A DNA stretch of 64,000 nt from Octopus vulgaris (Eukaryota): positions 56,110,001 through 56,174,000 of the forward strand of contig OX597817.1 in the NCBI GenBank assembly GCA_951406725.2. Direction: 5' to 3'. Below are positions 4,148-63,010 of this stretch, one piece after another. Below the pieces are notes generated by a model. The model was not told the origin of the DNA. It worked only from the letters and a program-made list of their open reading frames with translations, and made no database searches. The stretch's first letter is position 1; each line of letters starts with the position of its first letter. Position numbers and translations under genes: made by a program.

Positions 4148-5359
4148 CATTACCACTTTGGCAAACGGGCAGAATCGTCACCGCACCGGACAAAAAGCTA
4201 AACGATATTTCTTCCGTCTTTGTGTTTGTGTCCAAACACCGCCGCGATCGACTTTGCATTTCCTCGATCTATTTTGAGCACTAGGATCGATTTGATGGAC
4301 TTAGCCCCTTCTCCGAAATTGCTAGCCTTGTGCCAAATTTTGAAATTGTCATTATTCATTTTAGTTAATTAAAAATTAAACCTTTTATTTAATATATGCA
4401 TTTAATTGAATGCTAGTTTTTCGTTTGTTGGTATTTTTGCTGTTTAGCCCTCGGTCATCGCTGGCAGTACGAAACCATCACTGAATACATTCCACCTGTA
4501 ACCGTTTCGTTTTTTGCTCCTTTAGCCAAGGGACACATTATCCAACTTGTCCTTTTTCGAAGAAGGGTTAGAGTAATTCGGGGCAAATTTAGCTGCTAAT
4601 TCTTGCAGGCCTGGCTAAGTAACTCTATAATCAAGGACCTTCCAGCGATGACCATCCACTCCTTCCCTAATGCGTTGAATACCTGAGACTACATAGTTTG
4701 AATGTGCTCGTCAATTTTGAAGTCGGTATAGTGTGATTTGAGGAGAATTCAGCTGCTATTTCTAGCAATCGTAATGGCTCGGTAAATGTTCTCTTGTTGT
4801 TGTCTGTTATATTCTAGGTTCAAATTGATTTAGGTTTTGACTTTTCCCTCAGCCCTCTGAGGCCGATTCATTCATTTTTTAAAACTTTTTTCTGAATTAA
4901 TGTTTACCCTGAGTGAAGTTTAGGGTCCATATTTTAAATTGCACATATAGTCATGCAAATAACATATTTTTCGAATCACTCCATCGATTTTTCTAAGAAT
5001 GGAGAACAATCATTAATCCAGGCCCCGTAATCTCCTTTTCCAGCCACGTAGAGGCTGGTAAGAAGAGGCATAACTTGAACTCAGAACACAGAAAGCAGAA
5101 ACGGATAACGCAGGCGTCTTGTCCGTTTCTCAAGCTTCTACGCTTATTCTTACTTCTTGATTAGCACACTTTTATCAACCCCGAACGGATAAAAAATTGT
5201 GATGATCACGCCCGCATGTGAAATCAGCTTCTAGAAATTTAAAACGAGTAGACCAACCCATTTTGTACGACAATCCAACAACTCTCTCAGTTCACTTTCT
5301 GCGACATATCAGACAGATATATCAGCCATACACTTGGTTTAATATTAGCCAAGGATTTG

Positions 5360-5569
5360 AAGGCGGCGAGCTGACAGAAACGTTAGCACGCCGGGAGAAA
5401 TGCGCAGCCGTATTTCGTCTGCCGTTAAGTTCTGAGCTCAAATTCCGCCGAGGTCGACTTTGCCTTTCATCCTTTCGAGGTCGATAAATTAAGTACCAGT
5501 TGCATACTGGGATCGATATAATCGACTGGGCCCTGCCTCCCTAAAGATTTTGTGTCTTGAGCAGAAAAG
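5360..5569 (+). mobile_element. tRNA-derived SINE group 1 (Meta-domain-like core), full length
   Basis: GGCGGCGAGCTG.CAGAA head, B-box-like G.TCAAATTCC, core GTCGACTTTGCCTTTCATCCTTTCG.GGTCGATAAATTAAGTACCAG. TSD AATATTAGCyAAGGAT at 5341-5356 and 5570-5585. Confidence 0.9.
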
Positions 5570-5842
5570 AATATTAGCTAAGGATAAATTTATTTGTGCC
5601 CGTTGTATTCTAATAGCTCTTCTTTTGCTGTTCATGTTTTAAGGTTCTAAATTAAATAGAAACCGCATGCTAAGCTACAGATTATCTTTCAATCCTAAAT
5701 GCTACTAAAAAAAAAATAACGAAACGAGAGACACAGGCACAGTTACAAAAATAAACCTTGAAATCTGCTCGAATTTACGTCAACAGTTTATCCCACACTA
5801 CAAAGGGGTCTATTTTCACTACTACTACTACTACTACTACTA

Positions 5843-5885
<43 letters not shown>

Positions 5886-6353
5886 GCTGCTGCTGCTGTT
5901 GCTACATAGGTGCTACGTGGCAATATGTTAAAGAAGCTTCCTCATGGATCACCACGCTTCGGACTCGATCCCACTTCGTGTAAGTTAAGGGCGTGACTTT
6001 TACCACGGTCACGCTCCGACCCCAGCCGTGTGAGTGACATTGTATAAGTAGAATTTGTGTGGGTGGATTGAAGGGTCGGACGACTGCTGATATCGGTAAT
6101 TCCAAGGGTACGGCCGTGTCCTATTTCACGTTAGGTTGATTATGTCTGACTGTTGCGTTAAGATTACATCATCACACACTTGAACGTTAGTACCTAGAAT
6201 TCCAGGACCCATACGGCCTAGGGCCTCTTACCCTAATTCTATGGCGTTTAAATGGATGAGGTCCCAACATGCCTCCGCTTCCCCACCTCCGAACGGGACG
6301 CTAATCCATGGTGCGGTCACTCACAGCTGAGTATACTGGAGCGAGATGAAAGG

Positions 6354-8702: not shown

Positions 8703-9275
8703 GCTCGGAAAAGTACACACACACACATGCATACACACACACAATGAGATTCCTCTGTACACATTTCATATTGCGTATGTGTGTTTGTGTGTGTATATAT
8801 ATGTATGTATGTATGTACGTATGTATGTATGTATATTACATATGTACATGTACTGTTACCAAAAGCCTGGATGCATGGTTTTCAGTTATTCCATTAATGA
8901 AAAGTGCATTACATGTACGTTTTATAGTATTTATTTTCCCTATATTCCTATATAATTATATTACTTTCTCTACACATCCGATGTCATAGGCCAAGCAGTT
9001 TTCATGGGTTTCCACCGCTGGACTTAAACCCTCCAGTCCCCGTTCTTTTAAGTTCCATAATTTCTCATTCTTTTTGTTGTTTGGTGTTAACTTTTCGTTC
9101 CCAAATTTGGATTTCGAATTTAGGCACAAGGTCAACAAAATCAGGGGAGAAGCTAAGTTGATTATATCGACATCCCAACGTTCAACTGGTGCTTTTTTAT
9201 CGACCTCGAAAGGGTGAAAAGCAAAGTCGACCTCGGCGGAATTTAATCTCAGAACGTAACGGCAGACGAAATACC

Positions 9276-9509
9276 TATTTCTTTATTACCCACAAGGGGC
9301 TAAACACAGAGAGGACAAACAAGGACAGAAATGGGTATTAAGTCGATTACATCGACCCCAGTGCGTAACTGGTACTTATTTAATCGACCCCGAAAGGATG
9401 AAAGGCAAAGTCGACCACGGCGGAATTTAATCTCAGAACGTGACGGCAGACGAAATACCGCTAGGGATTTCGCCCGGCGTGCTAACGTTTCTGCCAGCTC
9501 GCCGCCTTA
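9276..9509 (-). mobile_element. SINE group 1 variant with a Tx1-like 3' tail, nested in another group 1 copy (host 9110-9275 and 9510-9552)
   Basis: Full head and core. 14-bp TSD GCrGACGAAATACC at 9262-9275 and 9510-9523. Confidence 0.9.
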
Positions 9510-33742: not shown

Positions 33743-34481
33743 AAAGCTGATACTAAGTAACAGCTGTGTGTATTTCTTATGATCCAACATCTTCGATGAT
33801 GGTAGGTTGTGCCTAAGAATTGAATGCTGTCATGTGATCAAGACTCTTGTAGTTGAATGAATTGAAGTATGACTTGTTCCAACGCGTGTGATTTTGGCTT
33901 CGTACAAGAAAATAATTTTACTGAGAGAATATGAATACAGAAGTTAAATATTCTTTCCTACTCTAACCCGGAAATTACGGATAGCAACGTCATAGAGCGG
34001 GGCTGCTAGTCTGCAAAAGAGATCGATCCTGGAGATCGGTTCAGTGATATAATGTGAACAATAGAAAAAAAAGTTGGAGAACTTAGACAACACTATGCTA
34101 CCAGGGGTCAATTGGACCGTCGTGGATTTTTCTGACATGAAATCGACCGGAAACTACAGAGTTGAAATAATCCAGTAATTTATCAAAAGCAGAAGAAACG
34201 ACTGCTCTAGTATTTAGATATTCAAGCTTCGATGCATGTGTACGTGTGTATATATATACCCGAGTGAGCACATAAATATGAAACAAGGTGGGAAAAAATA
34301 GTGCTCGAATACCGGAGGTAGAGTAATATGAAGCTGAATAATAATGTGCGTGCGTGCGCGCGTGTGTGTGTCTGAGTGTGTGCCTGTGTGTGTCTGTGTG
34401 TGCCTGTGTGTGTGTGTGTGTTTGTCTATGTATGTATGTGTGTGTGTATGTAAAATGAGATGGGAGATAGATAGAAAGATG

Positions 34482-34529
<48 letters not shown>

Positions 34530-35428
34530 TGTTTCTTTATTAGCCACACAGGGCTGCACACAGATAGAACAAATTACAAGGTAGAGCTTTTCTTTTGAGG
34601 GTAAAAAAAGGAGAGTGGTGGTTTTCGATCAAAAGGGATCGTAAAAGGAAAGAAAAAGGACAAAAAAAAGGGAGGGGTTAAAAAAAGGGGGGGAGAGAAA
34701 AAAATAAAAATAAAAAATAAATAATAATAGGGATCGTTATCACAGAAATGTCAATATGAAGTGTAAAGGGGAGGACAGGTGAGGTTTACCCGTGGAAAGA
34801 AAAGCCTACGGAAAAGACCACGGTAACCTCGGTCAATGAAGTCACATGTTATATTTCTTTTTTTTTTTTTTGCAAATAAGCAACTCTCTGTATTAATTTT
34901 TATGGTTCATAGAATCATAGTCAAGGTGGCTTCGTCATTCATACGTGCCATCCTTGCTACATTCACCCATCTTTTTTTAAAACATTCACTAGACAAAACT
35001 TGCCTCTCTACTCTCACTTTCCTCTTCAAGTGATACTTGAAGAAGTTGATGAGAGATTGACCAGAGAGGAAAGTGTTTGTCTCTAATCCTTTCAGGCGCG
35101 TCCACCAGATACATTCTTTCGCCATAGCCACAAGTATGATAAAAATAGCTCTTCCTTCCAGTTTGAAGGAAGGAGGTGTGACGATATTAACGATAGACTC
35201 GGCTGATAAACTGACACGTCCCACACGTGACAGCAGTCGTTCGACATAAGCCCACAGGTCGGAAATTGCTGGACACTGCACGATTGCGTGCAGAGCGGTT
35301 TCGTCGCTCTGCCCGCATCTCGGGCAGGTCGGCCCCGTGTTTCTCGAGCCATGCCTATAGAGCTTATCCCGAACGAGTAGCGCTTCTCGGTAGCACCGCC
35401 AGGCCAGGGATCTCTGGAAATTATCCAT
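34530..35428 (-). mobile_element. Tx1-clade LINE 3' end: ORF2 C-terminus with CCHC zinc knuckle plus 3' UTR
   Basis: FQRSLAWRCYREALLVRDKLYRHG...CPRCGQSDETALHAIVQCP...LW, stop at 34907. The pyrimidine-rich 3' UTR ends AGCC-CTGTGT-GGCT-AATAAAGAAACA. (GATA)n lies on both sides. Confidence 0.88.
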
Positions 35429-35515
<87 letters not shown>

Positions 35516-35776
35516 TGTTTCTTTGTTGGCCACACAGGGCTGAACACAGAAGGGACAAAATACAAAGTAGGGCTTTTCTTTTTGGGAAGAGAAGGAAAGA
35601 GAACAAAAAAAAAGAATAAAAGGGAGGGTAGAAATTCAATCAAAAGGGATCGTTAAAAAACAAAAAAAAGCCGATCAATAGGGATCGTGTATCTGGCCAC
35701 ACATGGCTGAACACAGAGAGGACAAAATACAAAGTAGGGCTTTTCTTTTTGGGAAGGAAAGAAAAAAAGGGGGAGT

Positions 35777-35777
<1 letters not shown>
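35516..35777 (-). mobile_element. Two abutting short 3'-UTR fragments of a variant Tx1 subfamily
   Basis: 35516-35693 and 35694-35777 each begin (plus strand) ..GGCCACACAkGGCTGAACACAG..GACAAAATACAAAGTAGGGCTTTTC, homologous to the end at 34530. They are bounded by GATA/GACA arrays. Confidence 0.8.
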
Positions 35778-35868
<91 letters not shown>

Positions 35869-35901
35869 CAGACGACAGATAGATAGATAGATAGATAGAT
35901 A

Positions 35902-36225
35902 TGCTTCTTTATTAGCCACACAGGGCTGCACACAGATAGAACAAATTACAAGGTAGAGCTTTTCTTTTGAAGGTAAAAAAAAAAGGGGGGGTCGATCAAA
36001 AGGGATCGTAAAAGGAGAGAAAGAGGACAAAAAAAGGGGGGTTAAAAAAAAGGGGGAGAGGAAAAAAAATTGATCAATAGGGATCGTTATCACAGAAATG
36101 TCAATATGAAGTGTAAAGGGGAGGACAGGTGAGGTTTACCCGTGGAAAGAAAAGCCTACGGAAAATACCACGGTAACCTCGGTCAATGAAGTCACATGTT
36201 ATATTTCTTTTTTTTTTTTTTTTTT
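35902..36225 (-). mobile_element. Tx1 3'-UTR copy, near-identical to 34530-34870
   Basis: Direct repeat of 34530-34870, truncated at the internal T-run and flanked by (GATA)n on both sides. Confidence 0.88.
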
Positions 36226-36293
<68 letters not shown>

Positions 36294-36519
36294 TTCACGA
36301 GTGAGTGTGTGAGTGGGTTTTCTAGCATGGACAGCACTGTCCATATCTATGAATCTGATATAAATGATTTCGGAATTAGGCTAACACAAGTATTCAAGCA
36401 CGGAAATCCAGGAACTTCACTGAACATAATCGAAAAATGGAAACAAATTCCAAATCAGAGAATGAAGCTCATGGATTCATAATCTAGTACTTTGGTTATA
36501 AACCATTTTTTTGTTTTCG

Positions 36520-36935
36520 TTATCAATGGACCCGTTTAATTAATACTTTATTGTCGTGGACCCCACCTCCCTTGTCGTTTAATGTTTAACAAACTATGAA
36601 ATTATTTCATAGGTCCTACTTTCAAGATTCCTCATTTTGTTTTTCACACGTTCACTTGTTTAGGTTTGCGACGGAACTCTTTGAGAGAACATGATTCAGT
36701 GACTGGACACATAAACGATGTAAATCGTTTCAGAAAGAAACCCGTTTCTTACAATAAATATATATAAAGCAAAATACAACCATGGGAACACACTTTACTG
36801 CTTTGCTTGCGGGAACTCCACAAAATCATTACGAAACCCTAGGGGTCACACGGAGCCCAATTGAGAACAGTGCTTCCCAAAGAGGGCGGTAACGCCCCCG
36901 GGGGGTAGTGGAATGATTCGGGGGCAGGACGTTGT
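36520..36935. mobile_element. hAT/Charlie-like relics
   Basis: An end resembling GGAGCCCAATTGAGAACAGTG runs directly into CAGTGCTTCCCAAAGAGGGCGGTAACGCCCCCGGGGGG, a Charlie-type terminus. Confidence 0.45.
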
Positions 36936-37559
36936 AGAAAAAATGGGGCATGAATGGGGTGACCAAAACGAGGCAATGGATGTAAAAAAAAAATGGATGT
37001 AAGAAACAAAATAAAGGGTTAAATAGGTTGGGTTTTATTTGTGAAATACTGTTGTTTTGAGTTTGCCGCAGAAAATGGTCTGTTTGTGATGGTGAGTGGG
37101 AGGTGAGTACTACGAATGTGGCCTTAAAACCAAGGAGGCGGCAGCGTGAAAAAGTTTTGGAACCAATGTTCTTTATAGCGAATGGGCCTGTGAGGATTGA
37201 AAAACAGGGCAGAAAACTTACCATATTTAGAAAGAAAATGAAGATCGTTTTAAATTTTCTAAAATCGTTCAAAACCCACAACAAGAGAGAATTATAGCAA
37301 TACATTTTCTTGTAAGGCTGTTCACTAATAAAAGTAGGGTGCAGGAGGAAAGAAACTCTCTTCCTAATCATATGGTTCAGGGTTCAGTCCCACTGCGTGG
37401 TGCATTGGGCAGGTGTCTTCTACTAAAGCCTCGGGCCGACCAAAGCCTTCTGAGTGGATTTGGCAGTCGGAAACTGAAAGAAGCCCGACGTGTATACAAG
37501 CACACACATACACACATATTTATATATATACTGTGTTTGTGTGTGTGCGTGTGTATGTG

Positions 37560-44106: not shown

Positions 44107-45088
44107 CTTTGATACTTTGATAGGTTTCGGCCATTATTGGCCCAGGCCATGTCTAACTTAATAGCACCACCTGGTGAAGTCTTTCAAGTCAGAATTTGGG
44201 CACTATGGCCCACTCAAGTAGAGAGTTATTGTTTACAGAGACATATCCGGGTGTAGGGGGTTTATCCGGGATTTCTTGAAGGAATCTGTCCAAAGACTTC
44301 TTGAACCCTATAGGGTCAGTTTCTGTTTTAATGTGTTTTGGTGTAATGTTAAAGAGAGCGGGGCCAATTGAGGTGAAATAATTGTGCCGTATTGTTGTTA
44401 TGAGATGAGAGTGCGATTTTTGTTTTGGGCGGATGGCACGAGGCCCAAGCCTTGGATGTACCTTAAAGGTGATGCCAACATCATTTGGGCAATGCTGATG
44501 GAATATTTTCCACATCATGCAGATGATGTAGCGCTCACGACGACGTTGGAGAGAATAGAGTTTTAGCTTTTCTAGTCGACCCCAATAGTCGAGGCCTGTC
44601 ATGCCATCTATCTTTTTTGTGATTGCCCTTTGAGGTGCTTCGACTTTTATGATACCTTGTATTGTGTGGGGAGACCACAGTGGACAACAGTATTCAAGGT
44701 GGGGTCGGGCAAAAGTGGAGAAGAGAAGGATAATGGTGTGGATATCTCTCGACTGGAAAGTTCTGAGAATCCAGGAACACATTCTGCGGGCCATGTCAAC
44801 TTTGGTGTTTATATGAGTGGCCCAGCTTACGTTGTTGTCCACAATTACTCCCAAGTCTCTGATGTTGTTGGACGCCGCGAGAGTTTCACCTGAAGGAAGG
44901 GAGTATGGGAGTTTCAGGGCATCCTCTTTTCCAAAGTGGATTAGCTCAAATTTATCCTCGTTCAGCGGCATATTGTTTTTTTCTGCCCATTGGATAACAG
45001 CCAGTAGATCTGACTGAAGGCATGTCCGGTCACTCGCCTCATTTATGACCTTCTGTAGCTTGGAGTCATCTGCAAAGATTTTTATGTT
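44105..45088 (-). mobile_element. 5'-truncated CR1-group LINE (C-terminal RT region, short 3' UTR and tail)
   Basis: Open frame KIFADDSKL...WAEKNNMPLNEDKFELIHFG...RDLGVIVD...RPHLEYCCPLWSPH...RLEKLKLYSLQRRRER, stop at 44189. The 3' UTR has a GGCC-AATAAT-GGCC hairpin and an (ATCAAAGT)2 tail. (TA)n lies on both sides. Confidence 0.9.
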
Positions 45089-45103
45089 ATATATATATAT
45101 GTT

Positions 45104-45163
<60 letters not shown>

Positions 45164-45268
45164 TATATATATATGCATATATATATATATAATTACATAC
45201 ATATATACATATATATACATACATATACATATATATTTCATATATATATATGTATGTGTATTTATGTA

Positions 45269-45306
<38 letters not shown>

Positions 45307-45435
45307 CGGAGGGCTGTTAGTCGTGCTAATCCACCAATAAGGTTTATCTACCAAATGCTGTGTTGAGCATTTATTCTCACTTTGAGATACAATCCTATCT
45401 CTCTCTCACTCCCTCTCTCTTTCTCCACATATATG

Positions 45436-45475
<40 letters not shown>

Positions 45476-48400
45476 CTAGCAGCATAGCCCGGCGTTGCCC
45501 GGGTCTGTAAGAGCCCCTAGTAGGCAACGACTAATCCCAATGTAGTCCTTTCCCTCCAGGGAACGAAGGTGCATGTGGACGTTGCAATGTCTTGTCTTCA
45601 CTGGAATACTTCTGTATATACGATGTTCCTAGCTGTCCGTTTGGGCGAAAACATGAAAACATCATTGCGCCTCCCAACGCGTGAACAGCCCACGTAGAGT
45701 TGACCGTGGGCGAAGCACTGTTCGCCCAAATGTAACCCAGCGACTTGTAGCGTTTGGCCTTGGGATTTATTGATGGACATTGCGAAGCAGAGTTTAACAG
45801 GAAACTGAGAACGCCTGAAGTGGATTGGTAGGTCAGCGCCCGACGGTTGAAGGTGCATCCGTGGAATGAAGACGTCCTCTCCCTTCCCACAACCGGTAAG
45901 TATTGTGGCCGTTATTAAATGTGGTGCCAAATGTTTCACAACCAAACGTGTGCCGTTGCACTGTTTAGGTGGAACCAAATTCCTGATGAGCATAATGGGC
46001 GCACCGACTTTTAACTTCAGGATGTGTGGTGGCAGGCCTGGCGGTTCAAGTGAATTCAGGAATTCAACAGGATAATCGGCAAGCTGGGCGGGGTCTGCTG
46101 TCCTATCTATAGATTTGTAGACGTGGACATCACCAGGAATAGCTTCAAGTAGCTGGATATTGATGGAGTTGACGGTTGTATTTTGGGGTGCGAGAATAGC
46201 TCTGCCTGCCAGCCATTTTAGGTCGCGTAAATTGTTTTGTAGGTCGTGGAAGACAGCGTCCCGGAGGATAGCAGGGGTGTCGACAATGGTGCAAAGTGAG
46301 TCCAATTGAACGTAGCCATCCGCATCAGACAGCATCCTATTTTCACCGAGCGATAAGAGGTCCCTGGAGAATGCAGCGGATCCGCTGTCACCAATTAACT
46401 GCGCGCACATGTTAGCTTGGAGGTGCAAGGGCCGCACATGTGCCCAAAGAGCTGACGACTTAAGGCACGCGCGCACGGCATCGGCACGGGTTCCTTTTGG
46501 AATAACAGGTAGAGTCTGCCTGAAGTCTCCTGAAAGAAGTAAAGTTAATCCTCCCATGGGGGCCATAGAGTCTCTGATGTCTTGCAGGGACCTGTCCAGT
46601 GCCTCAAGGGCGCCTTTGTGTGCCATAGTGCACTCGTCCCATACGATGAGTTTGCATCTGCGCAGAATGTCGGCCTGTTCTGAGTTCTTGGCGATGTTGC
46701 AGATAGGTGACTCGGACTTTGCCAGATCGAGCGGGAGTCTGAAGGCAGAGTGGGCGGTTCTGCCACCCGGAAGCAACGTGGCCGCGATACCAGAGGAAGC
46801 TACAGCCAGGGCAATGTCCGTGTTGTGTCTGACCTCTGCCAGAATTAGTTTAGTGACGAAGGTTTTGCCAGTGCCGCCGGGTGCATCAAGGAAGAAAATC
46901 CCCCCACGTTGCTGTCTGACAGAGTCTACGATGGTGTTGTAGGCTATGCGCTGGTCTGGAAGCAGCCGTGGTTCATTATCTTGGACGTACTGGTGCAGTT
47001 CCTCAATGCAGTAGGAAGTTTCGCGTAACAATTCAACAGACATAACATTGGCGTGTTCACGTGTGGGTGGTGGAAGGCCGTACTCTGTTAAAGCAGACCC
47101 ACCCATATCGATGACAGCGTCTTCGAGTTGAATGAGCGCAAAATTGTAAATGAAGTTGGTGAACGTGATCTCGGCGGAAGGGCAGTGTTGCTGAGCCGTA
47201 CGTAAGAAGTCGTGCGACATGTCATCCCTGTATTTCATCCAGAGACTTAGTGGATCACTAAGCTGACATTTTTGAAGAAGGATTGCGAAAAGATGTCGTA
47301 GGGCCGAATGCGTTTGCAGTAAAGCACCCTCTGCCATCGTGGCGTCCCACTGGGAGTCATCCTCTAGAAGGCCAAGTCTCATACATGCTTCCCTGAAGGT
47401 GTCGCACAGAACCCCATTGACGGTACGTATATTGGCGAAACCTGTTGGACCAGTGACCTCATGTAGAAGGAGACGGAGGTAGAAGCATTCTTGTTGGTTT
47501 GGCGGGATGTTGTAAACTCGACCCAGGCAGGAGTCAAACTTGACGCCTGGGAAGCTTTCGACGTTTTTGCCGGATTTCCGTCGAACCCAGGTGTTTTTAG
47601 ACCACACGAAGTACGATGGGACCTGTGGGTACAAAAGCGTTCGAGCGAAGTCATCACGTTGGCATAATTTGAAGAAACCAGTCAACGTTGTGTCTTTAGG
47701 GCTGGTGGCTATCTGCACAGCACTTTGCTCTGTGAAGTAAATCCGCTGTCCATTTTCCAAGTGTACAGCAAGCTGCACCACAGCCGGGTGTCTCTGATGG
47801 AGCGGGAAGCCGTAAATGCGCCAAAACGCTTCGTTGCTGCTGAGGTACCGGCCAGCCAAGTAGTTGGACACTTCGTCACGACTGGTGGTCCTCTGGATGC
47901 TGAACATGGCAGCATCGCTGCCTTTGTTGATATATTTGCAGACATATTGTATTGACCTGATGGAACTGCAGAACTCAACGTTGACGTGGGCTTTGAATAT
48001 CTTCGACAGGAGAGGACAGTAGGGGACAATGTAGCTGTTGTCCACTTGATGTCGCCCAACCGTAATCGTGCGGCCTCCATTGGCTGGACTCCTTCGTTTG
48101 TACAGCGGATACCCATCGCCGCCTGTTTGAGTCTCCAAAGTGAACCGTTTAGGGAATCCCTTTGAGCAGGCTAATCCGTTTTTGTAGCATGGTGTGTTGG
48201 CGTAATTTGGTCCACAGGGCCCGTGTACCATGGTAGTGCGGACAATTTCGTAGAGTCCGGGGTCCTCATCGGGGTCAGGAATCTCGGCGGAAATGAATTT
48301 GTCAATGTCATTAGTCTCGATTTTATGAGTGAGCCAAATTAAGATGTGAGCATGTGGCAAGCCCGTCTTTTGCCACTCGACCGAAAACATGTGGCACCTG

Positions 48401-51400
48401 ACATGCCCGAAAATCTGACCCTTAACTATCAAATCCTTCATTTTGCCCAAATTCAGACGGAAAACCCAAGCAACGATGTCGTGTCGATGGGTGTGAGATT
48501 GACCCGGGAGGCGTTCGCGAGTGATTTCGTCGCAGCTGGGATTGCACGTGTAGGTGATAAAGAGGTCCGGCCGGCCGTAAATGCGCACGTAGGTCAAGGC
48601 GTCTTGGGTCCTTTCACGCATATATCGCGGTCCTCCCGTGAAGGTGGAGGGTAGAATGCATGGCTTGCCGATGTTGCGAGGGTCATTTTCTTGTTGCAAA
48701 CCGTCACGGAGATGAATGTAGGAGTCGGAGCGAAGTTTGGCCTGATTAAGTTTAACGTATAGCAGCCTTTCCGATTCCATTTTTGCGGCCATGTCGACGG
48801 CGAACTGGTTGAATAGCTGACGACAACGGGGCAATAAGTTGAACTCACCCTCCCTGACCATGAACCGGTATGAGTAGAACGCCCTGTAGGAAACCGTCTT
48901 TGATGCCGCAGTAGTTTGATTGAAGGGCTGCCGTAAAGGAATTCCGAAGTGGTAGCCGTCTTCCCCATAAGGGAAAAGCAATGGATACTGAAGCGCGTCA
49001 TAAGATCTGTGAGTCTCGCTGATCCTGTGTAGGTTGTTACCACGGGAGGAGATGATTATGTCACGGCTGTTGTGTTGCTCTTCGTGTATGACTGCGGCAA
49101 TTTCGTTGCACGCAGGTGCGTTGAAACGGCGTTCGTGCTCCCCGTGGGGTCGTTTATCAGCATCAATGACAACGGTGAAGTTTGGAGATGGAGCACTGTC
49201 CAAGGCATATCTGAAGCTGCAGACGTAGCTGTTGATATCATGAAGCATGGTTTGGAGACGGAGAAGAATGTCTTTGCGGGGAACATAGCTTGTACCCGGT
49301 ATTATTCCAAGGCGTGCATCAACCTGGTGGTTGTAGTCGGCAATGAAGTATATTTGGAGGAAAGAAGACTGCTGAATCTCGTCTGGCAGAAGTGACCTAA
49401 TAAGATGGTAGACCTGTCCCTGCACTTTGAAAGTAGGCATCCAGCCTTCTCTGGGAGGAATTTTGGCCCCGAAAGAGGTCATTTGGAATGAGCAGTTGTA
49501 CTTTCGAATTATTTCAAGGAATTGTGACGAATCGGGGGTTAAACCCGCTGCGAGATCCTTCAGTGGTTGAGGTGGTTCCCGTAGGGGTGGCAGGTCCACT
49601 TTGCCACCAGAGCAGCACAAACCAGGTGGCTCTCCGGGCCATTTCTTGGCTTTGCAAAACTGGCATACAATTATCATTGACCCTATCTTGATGTCGTCAC
49701 GCAAGGAGAAGTTAATTGTGGCGTCGTAGTTGAATGCTAGTGACAACCAGAAAGCGGGGGCAGGGGTACGTACACCACGAATGATATCCCGACGTTTGTT
49801 GATACTCTCAAGTCGAGTGCACCGTGCCTCAGCAGATTCAGATGCACGTGCGACAGCGGTAGCAGTGGCATCCCTTGAAAGCCTTTCAGCTCTCGCCTCA
49901 GCACCCTCTGAAGCCCTAGCAGAAGCAGTGCTAATGGCATGTCTGGATGTCCGAATAGTCCGTTGGTGTGGAGTTTCGGCAGATCGAGCCCTGGCTGTTT
50001 GCGGCGTTAGCAGCTTGGCGAGCTCTCCTCTGTTGAGGTGTTTCGGCAGCTTTGGCCATGGCTTTGTTTGCGGCGTCAGCACATTGGCGAGTTCTCCTCT
50101 GCTGTGAGGTTTCGACAGATCATGTCCTGGCGGTGCTAGTGGCGTTAGCCGCATTCCGAATGGCCCTTTGTTCGGGGTTCTCGCGAGCTCTGCGGATGGA
50201 AGCACAGTAAGAAGCCCGCATGTTTTGGCTGGACTGTTGCTCTTTCGTCAACCTCGAGCGGAGGGAAGATCTGTACGCTGCGACCCTTGCAAGTCGGGTA
50301 GAACGGTCGCTAGTAGTTTCAGATGCCTGAGCAGCGGCATAACGGGAAGCTGTTTGCGAGAGGCGCAAGGCGGTTTCCTCGTGGGTCTCGCGTGCCCTTC
50401 TAGCCCTAGCAGCCGATGCCTTGGCCGTCCGAGGGCTGAGGAGGGTCCTTCTCTTCTTGGGTGGCATTTTGGTGGATAGCAATGTGTTTGGCAAAGGTGT
50501 AATAAAAAGGAACACGTGGGGTAAGTATTTTGGTGGATAGCAATGTGTTTGGTAAAGGTGTAATAAAAAGGAGCTCGTGGGGTAAGTATCCGAAAATGTA
50601 TAAAAATGTACAAAAACGGCCAAAAAGCTGGCAGCAATGTGAGTGACAACAACGAAAAAGTCAAAAGTGATCAAACTGAACAAACGAAAGGAAAAGTTTT
50701 TTGATGCACACGACAAAAGTGGTTTATAATAAACCAAGAGTTTGCAAGTAGCGTCCGAGGACCGTTAGGGTACGTCAAAAATTGAAGGTAAAACGTTTGG
50801 GGTGGTAGTTATAAAGAAAGTTTAAACAAATAAAGTATTCGAATAACTTGCGGCTGCAGCAGCTATTAGCAGAAGTGGCGGTGTTGGGGGTAAAGTCTCG
50901 AATGTAATTTCTTCCTGGTAGGAATTGGTTGGATCGAATTATCGATAGCTAAAAAGGTCAAGTTGCGTCCCCTAGACAGTCTGGTTTGTGTTTAATACAC
51001 AAATTTGTTTGCTATGTGTGCCACATATGATTAAATTAACCGATTTTTTCCAATAATGTATCCTATTGGAATAAAAAGGGCTATATAGCTCCTTGGAGCA
51101 GACATGATGCTCGTTGTGAAAAAAAAAAAAGATTCCTGCCAATTTGTGAAAGATATTGTCGAAAATATGTCATCTTGAATTTGAACGCGATTTCCCAAAA
51201 TGGCATGATTTTATCGATTGTTTCTGATGGTAAGGTATTGCATGGAAAACTAAAGTCAGAATTGAGTTTCTTAGGGTAACATTAAGCTTCACCATGAGTT
51301 TGGTGAAAATCGATTGCAAGTCGTGAAAACTATAGATAATGCGTTGCATAAAAAAGCTTAGATTCTCGAGTTGCGTCCCCTAGACAGTCTGTGGTTCATG

Positions 51401-62941: not shown

Positions 62942-63010
<69 letters not shown>

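Follow-up and report, generated by a model that had tools for sequence, protein, structure and literature searches.

Results

Stack of LINE 3' ends in the window

We analysed a 64,000-nt stretch of the Octopus vulgaris genome (GenBank assembly GCA_951406725.2, contig OX597817.1, positions 56,110,001 to 56,174,000 of the forward strand; hereafter the window), in which the 3' ends of several copies of a long interspersed nuclear element (LINE) are stacked among runs of the tetranucleotide TATC, which reads GATA on the opposite strand. The layout was derived from a direct reading of positions 33800-37000, combined with Tandem Repeats Finder and self-BLAST. Four 5'-truncated LINE pieces, A to D, lie at 34465-36293, all on the minus strand, and are split into three blocks by (TATC)n/(TGTC)n runs. 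Read in the orientation of the element, the order is (TATC)17, D, a compound array, C fused to B, (TATC)22, A and (TATC)16.

At the 5' side of the stack, a (TATC)17 array (36226-36293, minus strand; (GATA)17 on the plus strand), with unique DNA beyond it, precedes block D (35902-36225, minus strand). Block D is a 324-nt piece of the 3' untranslated region (UTR) from the younger of two subfamilies; it matches positions 5720-6049 of the full-length reference copy L046, described below, at 91.3%, and its 5' truncation falls within an internal A-run of the 3' UTR. Between the 3' end of D and the 5' end of C is the compound (TGTC)n/(TATC)n array (35777-35901, minus strand; (TAGA/CAGA)31 on the plus strand). 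Block C (35694-35776, minus strand; about 83 nt) and block B (35516-35693, minus strand; 178 nt, with the terminus GGCCAACAAAGAAACA) are both 3' UTR pieces of the older subfamily, to which they are 82-88% identical, and they are 93% alike over 72 nt. Block C lacks its last 11 nt and is joined straight to the 5' end of B with zero repeat between them (35690-35700), a fusion that may reflect a template switch or a later deletion. A (TATC)22 array (35429-35515, minus strand; (ATAG)22 on the plus strand) then separates the 3' end of B from the 5' end of A.

Block A (34530-35428, minus strand) is the longest piece, with 899 nt of a 5'-truncated copy of the younger subfamily matching L046 positions 5163-6049 at 95.8%. 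It retains the last 173 codons of the second open reading frame, ORF2 (34910-35428, minus strand), with a Pfam zf-RVT match (E = 5.5e-8), the ORF2 stop codon (34907-34909, minus strand) and a 377-nt 3' UTR with the terminus GCTAATAAAGAAACA. Directly 3' of its end lies the (TATC)16 array (34465-34529, minus strand; GATA on the plus strand). Self-BLAST aligns blocks A and D over 342 nt at 89.5% identity; their truncation points are distinct.

These data bear out the description in an earlier note on this DNA, made from the sequence alone, of four co-oriented, 5'-truncated pieces from two sequence variants in three blocks. The 3' junctions also read as that note had given them, with AAAGAAACA (A and B) or AAAGAAGCA (D) followed in each case by TATC. 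Its statement that the 5' truncation points abut the repeat stands for three of the four pieces (A, C and D abut TATC or TGTC repeat) and fails for B, which adjoins C instead. The possibility it had raised of a simple tandem duplication finds no counterpart in the layout, where two subfamilies of different age and different truncation points are present. Because the subfamilies, the identities and the truncation points all differ, the sequences favour three or more independent insertions into the same array over tandem duplication of a single one.

The window also carries an independent copy of the same family on the opposite strand. This copy (L049; 63010-64000, plus strand) is 5'-truncated, matches the reference at 95.3% over 991 nt and begins within the endonuclease domain, at reference position 2440. 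A (TATC)17 array (62942-63009, plus strand) lies directly 5' of it, in the same polarity relative to the element as at the stack, as the earlier note had reported. Beyond the window, the copy extends for another 3.6 kb to a normal 3' end, which is followed by (TATC)n.

The element and its classification

The last 371 nt of block A were used to search the window's own genome (2.8 Gb). The search returned 796 first-look candidates, a figure that is not a copy number, and the 40 matches that were scored were 92-96% identical. When 18 long copies were extended to 10 kb, several shared a common 5' terminus, ...GGACAGACAGACGCAAGTCAAATGGG. A natural full-length copy, L046, runs for 6049 nt from this common 5' terminus to ...AAAGAAACA, and we used it as the reference in place of a consensus.

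The first open reading frame, ORF1, encodes about 660 aa from its first ATG (in copy L034) and contains a CX2CX4HX4C zinc knuckle, CYLCNSEAHLRYEC; no Pfam family was found in it at E ≤0.01. In the Tx1 clade, ORF1 has a CCHC zinc knuckle in addition to an RNA-binding domain. ORF2 is open over 1147 aa in copy L047, with Pfam matches to Exo_endo_phos (1.2e-14), RVT_1 (4.2e-29) and zf-RVT (5.8e-7), and its endonuclease motifs align with those of the L1 endonuclease (L1-EN). Among solved structures, its best relatives are human L1 ORF2p chains (E = 4.8e-54, residues 8-859), with R2 proteins weaker at 3e-20 or worse. The element has no poly(A) tail, and an AATAAA motif ends 6 nt before the 3' junction. 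The closest homologue with a name is an Argonauta hians hypothetical protein (68% identity); the other matches were a Paramuricea clavata hypothetical protein, proteins labelled 'exonuclease III' by JGI, and unnamed proteins.

The ORF2 domains, together with L1 ORF2p as best solved relative, lead us to class the element as a LINE of the L1/Tx1 group, about 6 kb long, with an endonuclease of the apurinic/apyrimidinic type (APE). The Tx1 label of the earlier note thus holds only as far as the L1/Tx1 group. For Octopus vulgaris, a repeat annotation from 2026 includes 13 'L1-Tx1' families (PMC13282606), which serves as a lead only; the main text of that paper, supplements aside, contains neither 'GATA' nor 'TATC'.

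Flanks of copies across the genome

We next scored the flanks of copies collected from the genome, counting a 5' flank as positive if TATC-phase repeat made up 14 nt or more of the last 40 nt before the junction. Among the 30 copies picked by their 3' end, 28 had (TATC)n immediately before the 5' junction. Without block A of the window and one member of a duplicated pair (L013/L019), 26 of 28 independent copies are positive. The two members of this pair lie about 13 kb apart and show the same truncated copy; because their junctions and their interrupted 3' array are identical, the pair is, from its sequence, a segmental duplication carrying one insertion, not two insertions. Among copies picked by the 300 nt at the full-length 5' terminus, all 30 had upstream (TATC)n; two of these 30 loci were already in the 3'-end sample. 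The repeat was never found in the antisense orientation (0/44 copies at the 3'-sampled loci, 0/30 full-length copies). Full-length and truncated copies alike carry sense-strand (TATC)n on both sides, and the same flank pattern is seen in young copies that are 96-99% identical to one another.

Such repeats are rare in the background. In 20 arbitrary 10-kb stretches of the genome, this repeat content is reached in 0.27% of 40-nt windows on the TATC strand and in 0.56% on the GATA strand; in the rest of the window, the values are 0.89% (TATC strand) and 0.61% (GATA strand). Because the background is only 0.27-0.89% of 40-nt windows per strand, chance association is excluded (binomial P = 2e-53 for 27/29 at p = 0.009).

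The arrays on the two sides of a copy are also alike. Their median length is 83 nt upstream and 87.5 nt downstream, with the upstream array longer in 14 copies and the downstream array in 16, and perfect runs show no excess length at the 3' junction, where they measure 19 nt against 56 nt at the 5' junction (Wilcoxon p = 0.48, n = 29). Some arrays are very short. Copy L041 has 21 nt of repeat upstream and 9 nt downstream, with unique flanks outside, and short arrays therefore suffice for insertion; downstream runs reach down to 8-13 nt (L018, L010, L023). Where both outer flanks were non-repetitive, no duplication was seen outside the arrays, as none of the six copies that could be compared in this way (L006, L011, L015, L017, L018, L029) shared a word of at least 7 nt between its flanks; shared words occurred only in low-complexity flanks.

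Numerous TATC/GATA arrays carry no copy at all. Co-oriented stacks like that in the window occur at L010, L011, L012, L016, L023, L024, L032, L033, L036, L038, L039 and L053, the last of which is one of the 20 arbitrary stretches and holds a stack of three 3' ends. In two loci (L034, 2380-2570 and 8570-8700; L007, 1040-1215), the LINE and its arrays lie within or beside a compound (TA/TG/TATC) microsatellite that belongs to an abundant, tRNA-like repeat of the short interspersed nuclear element (SINE) type. Microsatellites of this SINE-type repeat may supply many target arrays.

The older subfamily gave 2151 first-look candidates, with scored matches 80-88% identical. Homology between the older copies and the reference extends across the 3' UTR and ORF2 (68-83%). 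The older copies end in GGCCAATAAAGAAACA, and at about 14 of 19 loci, judged by eye, TATC-type repeat comes next.

Phase of the junctions

The two ends of the element meet the repeat in different ways. At the 3' end the phase is fixed, with TATC coming first after ...AAACA in 42 of 44 copies; the remaining two junctions are one TATA (L008) and one alignment offset. An A-run at the 3' junction was found in 0/44 copies. At the 5' end, all four repeat phases occur (8, 7, 6 and 4 of 25 copies), with microhomology of 0-3 nt apart from a lone value of 12 that is an alignment artefact. In the full-length copies (L090-L119, position ~1500), the array joins GGACAGACAG (GGACAG) in most cases via T, TCT or TCTCT, and this variable CT stretch may represent heterogeneous transcript starts or bases added at the 5' junction. 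Scoring of both junctions for repeat and phase, which the earlier note had proposed, thus yields a fixed phase on the 3' side and all four phases on the 5' side.

Target or tail

From these flanks, the LINE family most likely inserts, in a target-specific manner, into (TATC)n/(GATA)n arrays that existed beforehand. The earlier note had suggested sequence-specific insertion into (TATC)n, and it is the presence of repeat on both sides, the single orientation and the equal array lengths that support it; the outcome that would have spoken for an element-encoded tail, GATA at 3' ends only, is not what the genome contains, given upstream (TATC)n in 28/30 and 30/30 copies. We thus consider it very probable that the stack in the window consists of four 5'-truncated copies, of a younger and an older subfamily, of a ~6-kb L1/Tx1-group LINE that likely targets (TATC)n/(GATA)n by target-primed reverse transcription.

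Several observations weigh against this conclusion. Upstream repeat is absent from copy L008 and amounts to only 8 nt, in degenerate form, in L015. Among the 19 older copies, three adjoin (TGTA)n, (TATG)n or (TA)n instead, and two have very short runs. The outer flanks of L034 share the 11-nt word 'tatatatgtat', a possible outer duplication that lies inside a compound microsatellite. Short-read contigs stop at the arrays, so that pre-insertion sites are invisible in them; at L041 (6980-8860), chosen for its short arrays, the output from four runs was dominated by repeat copies and listed no joint across the element, which bears neither way on an empty allele. Finally, occupied arrays have a summed median of ~184 nt, vs. 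a length-biased expectation of ~133 nt from 20 empty arrays. This ratio of about 1.4 comes from a comparison too rough to count, and it leaves room for repeat that was brought or added by the element. The related proposal in the earlier note, that insertions propagate GATA arrays through target-site duplications, gained no support, as neither the length nor the purity of the repeat is in excess on the 3' side and no outer duplication is seen in the six copies with non-repetitive outer flanks.

If (TATC)n were instead a 3' tail encoded by the element, the sites would need no repeat, and upstream arrays and stacks would arise by template switching to the (UAUC)n tail of another RNA. Such a tail would account for the single TATC phase after ...AAACA in 42/44 copies, and with AATAAA 6 nt before the end, transcripts plausibly terminate within the repeat; the array-less C-B fusion resembles a template switch, and both the possible 11-nt duplication outside the arrays at L034 and the somewhat greater than expected length of occupied arrays point the same way. 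A tail alone is contradicted, however, by the upstream arrays, the symmetry of the arrays, the lack of outer duplications and the existence of copy-free arrays. Of the 60 sampled copies, 58 have an upstream array, single copies between unique flanks among them, and these arrays match the downstream ones in length; the six copies with non-repetitive outer flanks all lack a duplication beyond the arrays; the downstream runs of L018, L010 and L023 are only 8-13 nt; 3' arrays are no purer than 5' arrays; and copy-free arrays are plentiful as targets. We therefore regard the tail explanation as improbable.

Still less probable, in our estimation, are two further explanations. In one, the LINE would insert without preference and survive in microsatellite-rich, weakly selected DNA, much as passive accumulation has been proposed for Waldo-A/B near CA repeats in Drosophila (PMC3812793). 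The octopus genome is indeed very rich in simple repeats, but the junctions are base-exact and involve one repeat type in one orientation (antisense 0/44 and 0/30), young copies (96-99% identity) keep the same pattern, and TA, CA and TC microsatellites, although abundant in the same DNA, are not those found at the junctions. In the other, which concerns this locus only and to which we assign an equally slight chance, the stack would be an artefact of the assembly or would stem from local tandem duplication of a single insertion. Arrays are hard to assemble, and B and C share 93% identity across 72 nt. Logan short-read contigs from four runs end at 34296 and restart at 36301, with no piece spanning the stack, and the joints listed there are cross-matches between repeat copies. 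Against this explanation, the sequences of A and D diverge by 10.5% and are cut off at different points, B and C come from an older subfamily, and comparable stacks occur at a dozen other loci, including L053 from arbitrary DNA.

Other features of the window

Two adjoining SINE-like units lie at 9130-9450. The 3' end of one of them (9278-9319, minus strand) is 83% like the last ~42 nt of the LINE, with no TATC after it. Elsewhere in the window, a 1549-aa open frame (45598-50247, minus strand) has matches to Helitron_like_N (6.8e-49), PIF1 (1.3e-61) and a Pif1 2B domain, and is apparently an intact Helitron-type Rep/helicase gene. Beside it, a 375-aa open frame (44189-45316, minus strand) has a FADD motif and a long C-terminal part that looks conserved. 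No Pfam family was found in this frame, which may be the tail of ORF2 from another LINE.

Discussion

How the element might use its target can be outlined from the junctions. The endonuclease of the element would nick the GATA strand, and the ...GATA-3' end of the nicked bottom strand would then prime cDNA synthesis at the 3' end of the RNA. The register could be kept by a phase-specific nick, or by pairing between the primer and a short (UAUC)n tail that the RNA acquires by read-through; such pairing would probably help and would fix the 3' phase. Imprecise joining of the second strand would produce the variable 5' truncation and the variable 5' phase. Every insertion would leave (TATC)n on both sides, where the repeats would still be targets, and repeated hits would produce stacks of a single orientation, like D, C-B and A. 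The data fit endonuclease specificity and RNA-tail pairing alike, and the two are not separable here. A stronger version is rather unlikely, though less so than the alternatives weighed above: that the element homes by pairing of its read-through (UAUC)n tail with nicked (GATA)n, and not through the specificity of its endonuclease alone, and that every insertion divides and also lengthens its array, so that LINE and GATA arrays amplify together, which would help to account for how common GATA arrays are in octopod genomes.

Microsatellite targeting is an established habit among LINEs. The closest described cases are Kibi, which targets (TC)n, and Koshi, which targets (TTC)n, both teleost LINEs of the Tx1 clade (Kojima and Fujiwara, 2004, as cited in PMC4494074 and PMC3812793). 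Judged from their descriptions, they share with the octopus LINE an APE-type endonuclease, a single orientation, a single microsatellite at both junctions and the lack of a poly(A) tail, as well as the L1/Tx1 domain plan (APE, reverse transcriptase and a C-terminal zinc motif). They differ in that their target is a pure pyrimidine/purine repeat, whereas that of the octopus LINE is the tetranucleotide TATC/GATA. Tetranucleotides are also the target of crocodilian Tx1 families, which insert into (TTCC)n/(TTTC)n (Kojima, 2015, PMC4494074) and differ from the octopus LINE in repeat motif and host phylum. In that account, a family is called target-specific if more than 20% of its flanks carry the sequence (PMC4494074); the octopus LINE exceeds this value, with 28/30 and 30/30 at the 5' side and 42/44 at the 3' side, or 93-100% of flanks.

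LINEs of other clades have taken up similar targets. Waldo, with (ACAY)n, and Mino, with (AC)n, are insect LINEs of the R1 clade (Grandi and An, 2013, PMC3812793). Like the octopus LINE, they are APE-type and their target microsatellite mixes purines and pyrimidines; in contrast to these R1 elements, the octopus LINE carries zf-RVT at the C-terminus, with L1 ORF2p as its best solved relative. The R4 and NeSL clades carry a restriction-like endonuclease, unlike the APE-type enzyme of the octopus LINE. To these clades belong Dong, with the target (TAA)n (R4; PMC3812793), and Togen, with (TG)n (NeSL; Kojima and Jurka, 2015, PMC4640811), which resemble the octopus LINE in being microsatellite-specific retrotransposons without long terminal repeats.

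The Tx1-type microsatellite targets reported in these sources, TC, TTC, TTCC and TTTC, all have one strand made up of pyrimidines only (PMC4494074, PMC3812793). A LINE that targets GATA/TATC was not found in the full-text literature, a scope that does not take in Repbase, Dfam or subscription papers. TATC/GATA is thus likely a new target for the known microsatellite-targeting habit of LINEs.

Target-specific LINEs illustrate how a retrotransposon can become highly abundant and yet spare genes, and they serve in research as natural models of site-directed integration. If the octopus family is indeed aimed at TATC/GATA, it would widen the target range of Tx1-type elements, by an incremental step, and its many young copies would be good material for learning how an endonuclease or an RNA tail reads its target. 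Such a family would also connect a LINE with the behaviour of a tetranucleotide repeat that ranks among the commonest in the octopus genome.

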